Positions 9,532 to 44,161 of a stretch of DNA of 64,000 nucleotides are shown here, piece by piece (positions within the stretch are counted from its first letter, which is position 1; every line of letters starts with the position of its first letter). The DNA comes from Escherichia phage SP27. The notes under the pieces were generated by a model, which was not told the origin of the DNA, searched no databases, and was given only the letters and a program-made list of their open reading frames with translations. The position numbers and the translations under genes are program-made. The stretch lies in the sequence record LC494302.1, one strand, 5' to 3'.

Positions 9532-11952
9532 ATGGCAGCTTGGCTATGGAGAATTATAATGACAACTTTTACCCCACGATGGGATATAAAAGCCGATGCT
9601 CGATATATACAAGAAGGACAAGACATTCTTGTGCGTTTGAGTATCAATAAAGAAAGCACAACGGATGATAGCTATGTATTAAATGAAGATGAATACTTAG
9701 AAATGATTCTTAACATACAATGCTTGGATAGTTCAGGTGCTGTATTTGATCCAGAACCACATTATACTTTTTATGTTGGTAATGACGAAAATACTTTTGT
9801 TCCTATTTCAGATGGTACAACTGGTAATAAATTAGTAAATGGTAAGCATAAGTGTAAAATCAGCAAAAATGAATTTAACTTATCTGCAAGTACTAATAGT
9901 GAAGATGTTTATTTTATAAAAATTCATTGTAAAAATGATGGAACCTATAATAATACAGAAATTATAAATTTTTATTTACAAGCAGTAAATGTTATGTATT
10001 TTGGAAATATTTCACCAAGTGGTGTTCTAGGATTAACTGATACATCAATAACATATGATAGTCAAGAAGTTTGGGTTACACCCGGAGTTGAGATTGGTGA
10101 TGACAAAAAGCTTTATTGTATTGGTGATGTTGAGTATGGCTCCAACAGTACATTGTTCGTTCAAGGATTTGGAAGAAGACGACCTTTCATTTTGGGTACT
10201 GACATGACTACTGATATTACACCTCGTGTCTTTTTTCCAGCATATCGTTTGATTGACATGGATATTTCTGAAGTTCCAGATAAACATATTACGAATGATT
10301 TCGCAGTATTCAAGCCAGCACAATCAACATGGCCTATTTCTGGTATAAACAAAGAAGTAAAAGTTAATATTCAAAATAGAAATGGTAATTTAATTGACAC
10401 TGGAATGGTGTTCAACCCAAATGGGCAATTATTGCAAACATTTTTATATGACTCAGATGCTTGTGATGCATATTTTAAAGTTGAGATTGTTGATATATTA
10501 AGTACATACACCGAAGAAAGTGAAAGGTTTGCTATCAATCAACGATATAAAGCATATCAAATGTGGGTTTGTCCTGAAGACATAGATACTATATATTCTA
10601 TTTCAGAAAAACCACTACCCAATCATTTATATCAATTAAAAGATAATGTTGTGTATCCATACGTAATTAGTGGTGAATACGATAATGGAACAATTAAGCC
10701 CGTTTATGATAGTAGTGATTGGATTGATTTAGGATATTATGACTCTACTCTTGGTGATAATATCATTGGTATGCAAAAAATGTTCAGGGTTTTGATAAAC
10801 GCAGAAGAAGGTAATAATATAAACTTTATTACTGATAGTGATTTAGGAACCATACATGTTGGTGAATATTTTGGAGACAGTATATATCCTAAAATTGAAA
10901 CTGATAGCTCTAATCAAGTTTCGTATGTTTTAGATGGTGGTGATGACATTAGAAAGTATGGGATAGATTTGACACCAGATGGATATCTTGTAGGAACTGC
11001 ATATGCCAAAAGTATTGATTTTAGTGAAAATGATGATATTAAATTATCGTTTTATGTTAAAGCATTTAGTACTGAAGGTGGTGAAGCAAGAAAAATATTT
11101 AACCTTAAGATTGTAAGAGGATTCGGACAGAATTATTTGAGTGCACATGTATTACCTTCGGTTGCATTTGAGAGAGAATGGTTTAAATGTATAAGTACTT
11201 CATCATTCACTAATCAACTATTTTTCCGACAATCTGACAATAGATATGGTCTTCAGAAAATACCGAAGATGTTATTGAAAGAAAACTTCCTAAGTCAAAC
11301 GTATCCATATACTAACCTTTCTGATATCAAGAAAGTATTGAGAAATAGTATAATTAACCCAAATGGAACTACTATTCCAAATGGAAAATTTAAAATGGTA
11401 ATGGGTAATTATAAAATAATATCAGCACTTGACAATCAAGGTAACTTACAATATGATCTATTATATAGAGAGGTTTTACCTGAAGGTTCTTTAGTATCTG
11501 TATCCAAAAATCCACGTCAATATACTCAAATCGACAACGGTCAGCTTGGTGAATTATTTGGTTTACGACAAAATATTTTTCAGGCTATTGGTGAAGACAC
11601 AACCAACTTAGTAAAAGACCCAACCGATTTACAAAATCGTGGTCTATACGTTGATGCGATACCAAGTATCAGTGATGAAATGCTTGATACGGTCCCAAGA
11701 TTTATGAATCACCCATACATTGAAGATGGTATACAGAAAAAATTCATGCCTATCATTCCAGTTGCATATTGTCAACCAGGCAAAGGTGAAGCATTTTTCA
11801 ACACTTTACTTCAGAACAATGAACATGGTACAATGGTAGGTGTAGAGTTCGAAATCACATCGGTTGAATTCGGATACTTTTCGCATGAATCAGTGAATTA
11901 TGTTTCAGATACATTTTTGATTACATTGCAAAACAATAACATAGGAGGTTAA
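9532..11952 (+). CDS. hypothetical large protein (806 aa)
   Basis: Long uninterrupted ORF; no motif recognised. Confidence 0.55.
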   Translation: MAAWLWRIIMTTFTPRWDIKADARYIQEGQDILVRLSINKESTTDDSYVLNEDEYLEMILNIQCLDSSGAVFDPEPHYTFYVGNDENTFVPISDGTTGNKLVNGKHKCKISKNEFNLSASTNSEDVYFIKIHCKNDGTYNNTEIINFYLQAVNVMYFGNISPSGVLGLTDTSITYDSQEVWVTPGVEIGDDKKLYCIGDVEYGSNSTLFVQGFGRRRPFILGTDMTTDITPRVFFPAYRLIDMDISEVPDKHITNDFAVFKPAQSTWPISGINKEVKVNIQNRNGNLIDTGMVFNPNGQLLQTFLYDSDACDAYFKVEIVDILSTYTEESERFAINQRYKAYQMWVCPEDIDTIYSISEKPLPNHLYQLKDNVVYPYVISGEYDNGTIKPVYDSSDWIDLGYYDSTLGDNIIGMQKMFRVLINAEEGNNINFITDSDLGTIHVGEYFGDSIYPKIETDSSNQVSYVLDGGDDIRKYGIDLTPDGYLVGTAYAKSIDFSENDDIKLSFYVKAFSTEGGEARKIFNLKIVRGFGQNYLSAHVLPSVAFEREWFKCISTSSFTNQLFFRQSDNRYGLQKIPKMLLKENFLSQTYPYTNLSDIKKVLRNSIINPNGTTIPNGKFKMVMGNYKIISALDNQGNLQYDLLYREVLPEGSLVSVSKNPRQYTQIDNGQLGELFGLRQNIFQAIGEDTTNLVKDPTDLQNRGLYVDAIPSISDEMLDTVPRFMNHPYIEDGIQKKFMPIIPVAYCQPGKGEAFFNTLLQNNEHGTMVGVEFEITSVEFGYFSHESVNYVSDTFLITLQNNNIGG

Positions 11953-18879: not shown

Positions 18880-20016
18880 ATGTCCGAGAAAGAAATCAAT
18901 CCTAAAAAAGCATCCACCGCAGCTAAATCAGCAAAACGCACTACTAAAACTGCGTCTAAAGGTCATACAATTGATGCAAGTGATATTTTTAACCAAACTA
19001 CAAAATCACTACCAGTACTGAAAGATGTTAAGGGAAATACTATGTCTCTAACAGTTCAAAACATCAATACTGTTGGTACAACTGCTGGTGCTGCTGTTGG
19101 GCGTTTGGCTGATGAAATTATGTCTAAAGTTAATGTAACGGATGACAATACCGAGTTTGGTAAATCAATCACCACAATTCTTACGTTGACTCGTGCAGTT
19201 GATATTGACAGTCTTCAAGAAGATAAATCAATTGTTGGTCGTATTAAGAAATTCTTTGTTAATGCTCAACAGAAAGTAGGTGATCAGTACAAAAACAGTA
19301 AAGAGCAAATTGACGAAATTATGAAAACTCTTCAAACTGGTATTAATCGCCAGCACGGAGAATGTGAATGGCTTGATAAAGCATATAATGAAAACAAAGA
19401 ATATTTGTTTGAATTACGTGATACATTAGTTGGTTTAGAAGAAGTAACTAAAACACAAGATGCATTATTATTAGAAATGCAAGCAGACAAAAATGTAGAC
19501 TCTTTTGCTATTCAAGAGCAAAAGATGATTTGTGAAGCACTTTCTAAACAAGAAGATAAGATTCGTCGTCTTATCATGATGTGCGAGCTAAGTGGTCCAC
19601 GTTTGATGAGTATGAAAAAGGTAAACTTGAACACTGTTTCTAAGTTTGAAGATTTAAAATCTGTTGTTATTCCAGCATGGAAGTCTCAATTGGCTGAACA
19701 GTTAATTTCCGAGCGTCAACGTAAGGATAATGAACTAGGCAATCTAATTGATAATGAGACAAACCGTCTTTTGGAAACTAACTCTAAAATGGTTGCAGCA
19801 AATATGTTGGACGCAGCAAAGGCAAACAACCGTGGTATTGTGGATATTAAAACCTTGCGTAATGTACATAAAACGATGATTGACAGTATTGAAGCAGTTA
19901 TTGAAGAAGAGAAAAAAGGCAAATTGGAACGTGAACGTGCTAAACAGGAAATTGCACAACTTTCCTATGAACTGGAAGACACTCTTCGTGAAATTGCCGA
20001 AAAAGCTAACAAGTAA
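18880..20016 (+). CDS. hypothetical protein (basic N-terminus, coiled-coil-like)
   Basis: 378 aa; N-terminal KKASTAAKSAKRTTKTASKG, Lys/Glu-rich C-terminus. Confidence 0.5.
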   Translation: MSEKEINPKKASTAAKSAKRTTKTASKGHTIDASDIFNQTTKSLPVLKDVKGNTMSLTVQNINTVGTTAGAAVGRLADEIMSKVNVTDDNTEFGKSITTILTLTRAVDIDSLQEDKSIVGRIKKFFVNAQQKVGDQYKNSKEQIDEIMKTLQTGINRQHGECEWLDKAYNENKEYLFELRDTLVGLEEVTKTQDALLLEMQADKNVDSFAIQEQKMICEALSKQEDKIRRLIMMCELSGPRLMSMKKVNLNTVSKFEDLKSVVIPAWKSQLAEQLISERQRKDNELGNLIDNETNRLLETNSKMVAANMLDAAKANNRGIVDIKTLRNVHKTMIDSIEAVIEEEKKGKLERERAKQEIAQLSYELEDTLREIAEKANK

Positions 20017-41275: not shown

Positions 41276-41388
<113 letters not shown>

Positions 41389-41395
41389 CCAAAAT

Positions 41396-41497
<102 letters not shown>

Positions 41498-41502
41498 AAA
41501 CC

Positions 41503-41663
41503 ATGACGCATGAAGAATGGATGAATGACATTAATTTTAGATATGCAGGTTTCGGTAACTGGAGAAAGTATCATTGGGAAATCATGTCAGACCCAGCAGA
41601 ATACGATAAACTTATAAACCATGAAGCGTATCCGTGGTTCTTTATTGAAATAATGGTACGAAC

Positions 41664-41667
<4 letters not shown>
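41503..41667 (+). CDS. MTHEEW mini-protein paralog 4 (54 aa)
   Basis: MTHEEWMNDINFRYAGFGNWRKYHWEIMSDPAEYDKL...; below the ORF-track cutoff. Confidence 0.45.
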
Positions 41668-41829
<162 letters not shown>

Positions 41830-41837
41830 AAAAAAAG

Positions 41838-42251
<414 letters not shown>

Positions 42252-42308
42252 CTAAATAATTCAGTACTGAGGATATTAATATGTTTAAAGATGAACGTCC
42301 AGATTTGT

Positions 42309-42346
<38 letters not shown>

Positions 42347-42421
42347 GAATTCCACAATCAGACGTATATGGTGTAAGTTACGTCGATGCAATCCAGAACA
42401 AGATCTCTGGTACTCTAGGAA

Positions 42422-42631
42422 GTGGTGAATGTTAACCTAGACGGGTTTGATAATTGGACGATAGGCAATTATTACTTGACTAGCAGGTTGAAACTAGAGG
42501 TGACAGTCCTTCACCAAACTGGAAAACCGGATGGACTTTTATTTAAAAGGGTAAGGCGTGGAAATATGTTTACAGAAGTTGCTTTTAGTAGCCTGTACGC
42601 CCCACGTCAAGGTAGCCGAAAGGCAAGTTAA
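42422..42631 (+). CDS. hypothetical 69-aa ORF (alternatively part of a non-coding RNA)
   Basis: ORF lies in an unusually GC-rich segment between promoter 42318-42346 and terminator 42636-42692; coding status uncertain. Confidence 0.3.
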   Translation: MVNVNLDGFDNWTIGNYYLTSRLKLEVTVLHQTGKPDGLLFKRVRRGNMFTEVAFSSLYAPRQGSRKAS

Positions 42632-42635
42632 AACG

Positions 42636-42692
42636 GATGGTTATAAAGCTGAATTAACAGCGGCGTTTAAAAGCGTCACCATCCATTTTTTT
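42636..42692 (+). terminator. terminator-like long hairpin
   Basis: ggatggt...accatcc (7 bp closing a 35-nt interior) followed by attttttt. Confidence 0.4.
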
Positions 42693-42708: not shown

Positions 42709-43473
<765 letters not shown>

Positions 43474-43488
43474 TTCACATGATATAGG

Positions 43489-44161
<673 letters not shown>

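Follow-up and report, generated by a model that had tools for sequence, protein, structure and literature searches.

Two adjacent small structured RNAs, one from a probable new and widespread family, predicted in the tRNA array of Escherichia phage SP27

Introduction

For about fifty years it has been known that phages T4 and T5 make small stable RNAs from their transfer RNA (tRNA) regions; to our knowledge, none of these has an assigned function. The present work concerns a segment at positions 42347–42692 (+ strand) in the tRNA cluster of Escherichia phage SP27, within a 64,000-nucleotide (nt) stretch of sequence record LC494302.1 that is referred to below as the window. A preliminary description, made from the letters of the window, had proposed that this segment encodes a structured non-coding RNA (ncRNA). 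The analysis reported here indicates that it very probably consists of two adjacent small structured ncRNA genes, the first of which, RNA1, belongs to a new conserved family.

In T4, RNAC and RNAD are produced by transcription of the tRNA region and their roles are unknown (PMC3014915, PMC9697503). RNA1 resembles RNAC (species 1) and RNAD (species 2) in lying inside a phage tRNA cluster on the tRNA strand, the T4 RNAs being co-transcribed with the tRNAs, and T4-like Bragavirus phages carry RNA1 in the place equivalent to that of RNAC and RNAD. The T4 RNAs are 120–140 nt long as against 195 nt for RNA1. The last part of RNAC, however, is a tRNA-like T arm (..CCGGGTTCGAATCCCGG..), whereas RNA1 has no tRNA-like part and is predicted to adopt a multi-hairpin fold with a probable pseudoknot. 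RNA1 is also common to unrelated phage families, and nothing comparable was found here for RNAC or RNAD.

The T5 record lists eight tRNA-region RNAs (RNAI, RNAIII, RNAIV, RNA1, RNA2, RNA2H, RNA3 and RNAX), seven as 'stable RNA with unknown functions' and one as 'putative tRNA-like RNA'; elsewhere in this text the names RNA1 and RNA2 denote the RNAs of the SP27 window and their homologues. The T5 RNAs are likewise interspersed with tRNA genes, some with their own promoters, and in T5-like Proteus phage 1 RNA1 stands between tRNA-Leu and tRNA-Ser. Several of the T5 RNAs are described as tRNA-like, which RNA1 and RNA2 are not. In PA5oct, a jumbo relative of 121Q and RaK2, ncRNA001–004 were found by RNA sequencing as gene-free regions, and ncRNA001 and ncRNA002 are highly transcribed, at up to ~5% of phage reads (PMC7318152). 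Such jumbo phages therefore express abundant ncRNAs. Unlike RNA1 and RNA2, ncRNA001 and ncRNA002 are located not in a tRNA cluster but in the terminal repeat.

No homology to T4 RNAC or RNAD, to the T5 stable RNAs or to PA5oct ncRNA001 or ncRNA002 was detected with covariance models of RNA1 (R1, built from 13 sequences) and RNA2 (R2). Neither model matched T4 positions 69000–75000 (L004) at E values up to 10. In T5 positions 20000–55000 the best scores, 8.4 bits for R1 and 11.8 bits for R2, were not significant and fell inside coding genes. The 16-kilobase (kb) stretch of PA5oct with ncRNA001 and ncRNA002 gave no significant match to either model, the best for R2 (13 bits, E = 0.55) lying outside both RNAs.

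Rfam 15, whose families include transfer-messenger RNA (tmRNA), RNase P RNA, 6S RNA, Y RNA/YrlA, group I and II introns, riboswitches and small ribozymes, was run on the window and on homologous loci and nothing was found. The segment gave no match at the gathering thresholds; at E values up to 10 the window and a 106-nt core gave chance-level matches only (17 bits or less), and in five homologous loci no match fell inside an RNA1 homologue. Neither ARAGORN nor the Rfam tRNA models found a tRNA-like 3′ domain in 42347–42692, and full-text searches of the literature did not find a description of RNA1. RNA1 is very probably a new, unusually widespread family within the long-known class of phage tRNA-region RNAs.

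Results

The segment and its surroundings are organised as follows.

42318–42346, + strand: sigma-70-type promoter, −35 TTGACT (42318–42323), 17-nt spacer, extended −10 TG-n-TATAAT (42338–42346)
42348–42542, + strand: RNA1, predicted structured RNA of ~195 nt, from covariance model R1 and covariation, with six helices and a probable pseudoknot
42536–42552, + strand: A+U-rich stretch separating RNA1 from RNA2 (spacer or weak hairpin), the promoter insertion point in RaK2 and L014
42548–42627, + strand: RNA2, predicted long hairpin 42555–42608 (54 nt) and GCC-GAAA-GGC hairpin 42615–42624
42636–42692, + strand: predicted branched intrinsic terminator, a stem of 7 base pairs (bp) around two small hairpins, then T7

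A blastn search divided the segment into two parts with different relatives. The first ~190 nt are 85–92% identical to unannotated gaps between tRNA genes in PM2, Pm5461 and SdyM_006 (T4-like Bragavirus), Morganella phage Mm5 and Proteus phage 1 (T5-like Novosibvirus), and partial matches were obtained in Aeromonas phages 65 and avDM6 and Klebsiella phage KP13-16. From the second part, a 54-nt piece matches Kuravirus phages. The whole segment is matched, at 81%, in the Klebsiella jumbo phages RaK2 and K64-1, where an insertion of ~40 nt between the halves constitutes a promoter (TTGAAC, 17 nt, TATAAT); in locus L014, as in RaK2, a promoter sits between RNA1 and RNA2. Each half also occurs without the other. 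In Asteriusvirus JNE01 the promoter is followed directly by RNA2 and the terminator, RNA1 being absent, and in Asteriusvirus EJP2 RNA1 is followed by tRNA-Ser, RNA2 being absent. In metagenome contig L013 (JACCDR011713278.1) the order is RNA1, a different RNA of 164 nt, tRNA-Arg and RNA2, each with its own promoter copy.

In the window RNA1 and RNA2 probably share one promoter and one terminator and, therefore, a primary transcript of ~340 nt is possible. The spacer at 42536–42552 is a likely site of processing between the two.

The promoter-driven RNA candidate between RNA1 and tRNA-Arg in L013, 'RNA-X' (minus strand, 767–604), has a long closing stem and a minimum free energy of −52 kcal/mol; a homologue is absent from the window and from the other loci.

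The source of the window is a jumbo phage of the Asteriusvirus type (121Q/PBECO4), and the region is 98–99% identical to 121Q, PBECO4, JP4 and others. The segment had been described as GC-rich and as lying in the tRNA cluster, and both statements were borne out. Its G+C content is 41.3%, compared with a mean of 33.3% for the whole window and 28–30% for the flanking open reading frames (ORFs), which places it at the 99th percentile among windows of the same size. The nearest tRNA genes called by ARAGORN lie on either side (41302–41391 and 43128–43219, both + strand). The segment folds better than shuffled sequences (z = −2.5) and has no paralogue within the window. A blastn search of 5,426 E. 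coli genomes and the PLSDB plasmids gave no match to RNA1 or RNA2, and an origin from the host or a plasmid was rejected on these grounds.

The predicted fold of RNA1 comprises the following elements.

42357–42387, + strand: P1 hairpin, 42357–42366 pairing with 42379–42387 (10 pairs, 100% paired, 9 compensatory in the manual alignment)
42393–42410, + strand: P2 hairpin CCAGA/UCUGG, sequence and length varying by lineage
42414–42441, + strand: P3 hairpin UCUAGG/CCUAGA (8 aligned pairs, 100% paired, 6 compensatory)
42449–42473, + strand: P4 hairpin, 42449–42456 pairing with 42466–42473 (6 of 7 pairs changed on both sides)
42474–42497, + strand: near-invariant core of S1 and S2, sequence UUGACUAGCAG-NNNN-AAACUAGAGGU
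42499–42515, + strand: P6 hairpin, stem of 5 bp and 7-nt loop that ends in YCCU
42527–42534, + strand: 3′ tail CCGGAUGG, conserved, with AUGG invariant

The helices vary in sequence and stay paired. P2 can form in every lineage (CCG/CGG, CCCACA/UGUGGG, CCAAUA/UGUUGG or CCAG/CUGG), and in P6 one pair changes from G-C to U-A, A-U or C-G and another from A-U to U-A. Several unpaired parts are conserved: the P1 loop has the motif W-G-G-Y-G-Y-A (UAUGGUGUAAGU in the window), CGGG (42442–42445) forms a conserved junction directly 3′ of P3, and GACGAUA (42457–42463) is the conserved loop of P4. Strict conservation was found in five loop or junction motifs, WGGYG, CGGG, GACGAUA, AGAGGU and CCGGAUGG.

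In the core, S1 is a 5-bp hairpin (42474–42478 with 42484–42488) that covaries from A-U to C-G at one pair and from C-G to A-U or G-C at another. Its loop bases CUAG (42480–42483) can pair with CUAG at 42494–42497 to give S2 and hence an H-type pseudoknot; this CUAG/CUAG pairing is replaced by CUGG/CCAG in KP13-16, and RaK2 shows a G.U wobble. A 3-bp alternative, P7, in which UAG (42495–42497) pairs with CUG (42519–42521) so as to flank P6, is equally compatible with the data. The core is probably an H-type pseudoknot.

Covariation was quantified on two alignments. For the 3′ half, in a model-based alignment, 97.9% of cells were paired and 11 of the 22 pairs had compensatory changes on both sides; none of 500 shuffles reached the observed value and slid controls gave 24–51%. 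For the whole of RNA1, aligned by hand, 99% pairing was found over 47 pairs, 30 of them compensatory, and again none of 500 shuffles reached this level, with slid controls at 42% or below. Folding and covariation across homologous phages, proposed in the preliminary description as a check, gave base pairs kept through compensatory changes to an extent beyond both kinds of control. Conserved G.U pairs at P4 position 1 and S1 position 3 make the fold strand-specific, since they exist on the tRNA strand and not on its complement.

Compact H-type pseudoknots with an A-rich third loop are found, for example, in preQ1-I aptamers and in tmRNA pseudoknots. As a pseudoknot, the RNA1 core would have the same topology, with a 5-bp stem, an NNAAA linker and four loop bases able to pair with the downstream CUAG. 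It differs in having no second loop between the strands and in being embedded in a much larger RNA, and the Rfam models for these families gave no match, not even over the 106 nt alone at E values up to 10. A tmRNA or tRNA-like reading, prompted by 'GACGGG' and ..CACCA, was rejected after negative results from ARAGORN and Rfam, the P6 loop not being a T loop. An RNase P-like 'GAGG..AGUCC' motif is not conserved in the homologues. Long-range pairings of the tail GGAUGG with AUCC in J1/2, of UUCCA in the leader with UGGAA, and of CGGG with the P6 loop or with CCG in the tail were not adopted, each being either invariant, with no covariation signal, or inconsistent across lineages.

Model R1 scores 226 bits in the window and 126–228 bits over sixteen loci (the window and 15 others). 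The carriers are the jumbo phages Asteriusvirus and Alcyoneusvirus, the T4-like Bragavirus and Ishigurovirus, the T5-like Novosibvirus and one phage of the Stephanstirmvirinae. No match to R1 was found at the T4 rnaC/rnaD locus, in the T5 tRNA region, in the PA5oct stretch, at the Kuravirus locus or at chance pattern matches. As judged by this distribution, RNA1 is an uncatalogued family of ~195 nt in large virulent phages of Enterobacterales and Aeromonas, located within tRNA arrays. A pattern scan of IMG/VR added one new lineage (L007), and a metagenome scan L013 and its close relatives. Pattern matches in Cohnella and WWE3 among GTDB genomes were not confirmed by R1, and a looser scan gave a single match, by chance, in a coding region.

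At every locus RNA1 is on the tRNA strand inside a tRNA array, where it often fills the gap between two tRNAs. The homologues in PM2, SdyM_006, Mm5, Proteus phage 1, KP13-16, avDM6 and Aeromonas phage 65 all lie between tRNA genes. The small RNAs of T4-type phages had been invoked as an analogy in the preliminary description, and this is strengthened by the T4-like Bragavirus phages, which carry RNA1 between two tRNA genes. RNA1 starts 0–3 nt past the encoded CCA of the tRNA before it in T4-like, T5-like and Stephanstirmvirinae phages (seen in PM2, SdyM_006, Proteus phage 1, KP13-16 and avDM6). Downstream, the following tRNA starts 1–9 nt past the aligned stretch in the Bragavirus, Morganella and Novosibvirus phages; the stretch itself extends 8 nt beyond the GG of CCGGAUGG. 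The 3′ end of RNA1 is placed by the alignment at CCGGAUGG or within a few nt of it. In the jumbo phages RNA1 has its own promoter.

Other elements were seen in these arrays. In KP13-16 (L020) a truncated tRNA-like piece (..GAGTTCGAATCTC..ACCA; 1622–1680) stands directly after RNA1, and a sub-threshold match to the tmRNA model (31.6 bits) lies elsewhere in the array (656–731). In SdyM_006 (L002) the tRNA-Gly in front of RNA1 has a segD-like homing endonuclease gene (2335–2940) immediately upstream of it. In T5 (L029) hegC (11023–11607) has tRNA-Ser and tRNA-Leu as its neighbours, and tRNAs of these two types stand on either side of RNA1 in Proteus phage 1. It is plausible that homing endonuclease genes, found beside RNA1 or in its stead in related tRNA arrays, provide a route for the horizontal spread of RNA1 between phage families.

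The only substantial frame within the segment is the following.

42422–42631, + strand: ORF of 69 amino acids (aa) with a GTG start, spurious, crossing the RNA1/RNA2 boundary

This frame is intact only in Asteriusvirus. Outside that genus, stops or frameshifts interrupt it in 9 of 11 homologues (RaK2, L014, L013, PM2, Pm5461, SdyM_006, Mm5, Aeromonas phage 65 and L007), even though the nucleotides at the homologous position are conserved. Only Proteus phage 1 and KP13-16 have no early stop, and there the frame runs into neighbouring sequence. The ORF gave no Pfam match and its best PHROG match had E = 0.011, in agreement with the earlier remark that it has no convincing family resemblance. A search for conservation at the protein level, which could have overturned the ncRNA reading, found instead that the frame is not kept and that the RNA structure is, with many compensatory changes. 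On this comparison of homologues, the 69-aa ORF is refuted as a conserved protein gene. The 27-aa coding sequence annotated in 121Q as gp129 (42345–42428 in the window) lies inside RNA1.

RNA2 comprises ~80 nt of hairpins, or ~140 nt with the terminator. Model R2 scores 104 bits in the window and 83–105 bits in L012, JNE01, RaK2, L014, L013 and the Kuravirus phages XT32 and 1-6af; it finds RNA2 in Asteriusvirus, Alcyoneusvirus and L013, and in Kuravirus a hairpin related to RNA2, within a stretch of 650 nt free of genes. Over 20 pairs, 97.5% pairing and 3 compensatory pairs were found in a small sample of 6–7 sequences, which is weaker than the result for RNA1. L013 adds changes from C-G to U-A and from U.G to A-U. 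Together with the terminator, RNA2 folds better than shuffled sequences (z = −3.1).

The gene-free Kuravirus region of ~650 nt that holds the RNA2-like hairpin lies at 1227–1875 in XT32 (L006) and at 655–1302 in phage 1-6af (L026). About 55 nt downstream of the hairpin is a tRNA-like RNA of 147 nt, whose acceptor stem is 8 bp long and whose T arm reads GTAGG-TTCGAAT-CCTAC; a multi-hairpin insert of ~100 nt and a 3′ ACCA are also present. It was not called by ARAGORN (in XT32) or by Rfam (in 1-6af).

A strong promoter had been proposed upstream of the segment, and that at 42318–42346 fits 11 of 12 consensus positions and has the TG; transcription is expected to start downstream of it near 42352–42354. 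The same promoter drives RNA1 in 121Q, L012, EJP2 and L013, and RNA2 alone in JNE01. It belongs to a family with a conserved spacer (..TTCAGTACTG..), of which the window has five copies compared with 0.13 expected by chance.

41839–41867, 42248–42276, 42318–42346, 43089–43117 and 43985–44013: promoters with the TTCAGTACTG spacer

These promoters drive small ORFs, RNA1 and tRNA genes, and each unit of contig L013 is preceded by the same type of promoter.

The long hairpin and U run noted at the end of the segment has the form of an intrinsic terminator as predicted from the sequence, a stable G+C-containing stem followed by a U run. GGATGGT (42636–42642) pairs with ACCATCC (42678–42684) and T7 occupies 42686–42692. 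The 35-nt branched interior is unusual, and a simple terminator scan missed the element because the enclosed 'loop' is long. The outer stem and one inner hairpin show compensatory changes in the RaK2 and L013 versions. RaK2 (L003) has a second copy of a branched terminator-like element upstream of RNA1 (~2944–2998), which holds the RNA1 promoter (TTGACA, 17 nt, TATTAT) inside its own hairpin, so that terminator and promoter are fused.

Three further observations concern the tRNA region of the window. The tRNA-Ser gene at 43128–43219, called by ARAGORN and in agreement with the 121Q annotation, has the anticodon ACT (A at position 34), which is unusual in a bacterial-type tRNA. Directly 3′ of tRNA-Ser(UGA) (41302–41391), a weak match to the tRNA model (41396–41474; 29.3 bits, at the threshold) was not called by ARAGORN and may be a degenerate tRNA or a tRNA-like RNA. 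Two tandem overlapping ORFs of 54 aa (41503–41667 and 41664–41828), both starting MTHEEWM, are paralogous small genes.

Discussion

The proposal of one ncRNA of ~340 nt stood as regards a non-coding structured RNA but not as regards its extent, the functional units being, on the present reading, two separable RNAs of ~195 and ~140 nt. That the functional unit is nevertheless a single RNA from promoter to terminator would agree with the lack, in the window and in phages of the 121Q type, of a promoter or strong terminator separating the halves, and with the z score of the whole segment. It seems unlikely, since the halves are found apart in JNE01, EJP2, Bragavirus, Novosibvirus and Kuravirus, have separate promoters in RaK2, L014 and L013, and show no conserved pairing with each other. 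A small protein gene, either the 69-aa ORF or the 27-aa ORF (gp129), is scarcely credible: both ORFs are present, and hypothetical proteins are entered at this place in several GenBank records, but the interruptions of the 69-aa frame, its lack of a Pfam or convincing PHROG match, the placing of changes as compensatory ones in stems rather than at synonymous sites and the bounding of the Bragavirus region by tRNAs all argue otherwise. Nor is it at all probable that the conservation reflects recent horizontal transfer of a DNA-level element, such as a homing-endonuclease target, recombination hotspot or origin, and not RNA function. Identity of 85–92% across unrelated phage families and homing endonuclease genes in the same tRNA regions (the segD-like gene in SdyM_006, hegC in T5) would fit such an element. 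However, in the divergent KP13-16, Aeromonas and L007 sequences the helices are preserved by compensatory changes and by G.U pairs that are strand-specific, a signature of selection on a single-stranded RNA fold, and neither equal conservation into the flanks nor equal constraint on both strands was seen. Transfer by homing could explain the spread of RNA1 but not why its fold is kept.

Two separate RNAs would arise in the window as follows. Both would be transcribed rightwards from one early-type sigma-70 promoter, stopped by the single branched intrinsic terminator and freed from the common transcript by cleavage in the A+U-rich spacer 42536–42552. In T4-like and T5-like arrays the 5′ end of RNA1 would instead come from 3′ maturation of the upstream tRNA and its 3′ end from RNase P acting at the downstream tRNA. 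RNA1 and RNA2 would then accumulate as stable trans-acting RNAs, a suggestion made by analogy with T4 RNAC and RNAD and the 'stable RNAs' of T5.

RNA1 might alternatively act in cis, as a processing scaffold, a spacer or a riboswitch-like regulator of its neighbours. It directly abuts tRNAs in four lineages and is, therefore, part of tRNA precursors there. The downstream neighbour, though, differs by lineage (tRNA-Asp, tRNA-Ser, tRNA-Thr, tRNA-Glu, RNA2 or another promoter), no conserved expression platform is present, and in the jumbo phages RNA1 stands alone behind a promoter of its own, the next tRNA lying at a distance of 580 nt and one terminator; a cis role is thus not expected, with about as little probability as the single long RNA. 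Still less probable is a catalytic RNA, self-cleaving or of another kind, that would cut itself or its neighbours out of polycistronic tRNA transcripts. The compact pseudoknotted core of RNA1, its near-invariant unpaired nucleotides and the position of the conserved leader and tail exactly at transcript junctions might be read in that sense, but the Rfam ribozyme models gave no match at E values up to 10 and the ends are already explained by tRNA-processing enzymes.

Several points weigh against the proposal of two stable RNAs with a conserved RNA1 fold. The pseudoknot is backed by one compensatory change and one wobble, the 3-bp UAG/CUG pairing fitting equally well. P1–P3 were fitted by hand to the helices in three divergent lineages, so that the counts for the whole RNA lean towards the model, and most homologues are very similar, leaving about eight independent lineages and a small effective sample for covariation. 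The transcript ends, stability and processing of RNA1 and RNA2 are all inferred. Finally, RNA1 is absent from the close relatives JNE01 and G17/phAPEC6 and must, therefore, be dispensable for growth on at least some hosts.

As to function, the unpaired conserved motifs of RNA1 might bind to a conserved partner (a protein or an RNA, of the host or of the phage) tied to tRNA or translation, for example as a decoy or sponge; this is offered tentatively, as a minority possibility. The UGGYG of the P1 loop is complementary to the common tRNA terminus C-R-C-C-A, and recognition of tRNA 3′ ends is known for T-box RNAs and RNase P. It might be speculated that RNA1 captures tRNA 3′ ends through this loop. 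Alternatively, RNA1 might divert, as a decoy, an anticodon nuclease or some other defence protein that binds tRNA, or it might be a ribozyme.

Conclusions

The observation made in the preliminary description is real and its interpretation as ncRNA was essentially right. There are practical consequences: GenBank records place spurious 'hypothetical proteins' over RNA1, and Rfam has no model for it.

RNA1 differs usefully from the RNAs of T4 and T5. Jumbo, T4-like, T5-like and Stephanstirmvirinae phages share it, with identities reaching 92%; its predicted fold is well defined and has invariant unpaired motifs; and natural variants without it exist. Sharing, fold and natural absences together make it, therefore, a tractable handle on the role of such RNAs.

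Phage tRNA arrays are now regarded as counter-defence cargo, and the link of RNA1 to these arrays suggests a role in the phage–host conflict over translation. RNA1 could, though we hold this with no great expectation, be a new class of functional RNA that is exchanged with tRNA arrays and acts on tRNA metabolism or on host immunity directed at tRNA. If so, a near-invariant, probably pseudoknotted core kept across at least four unrelated phage families would mark a conserved host target.

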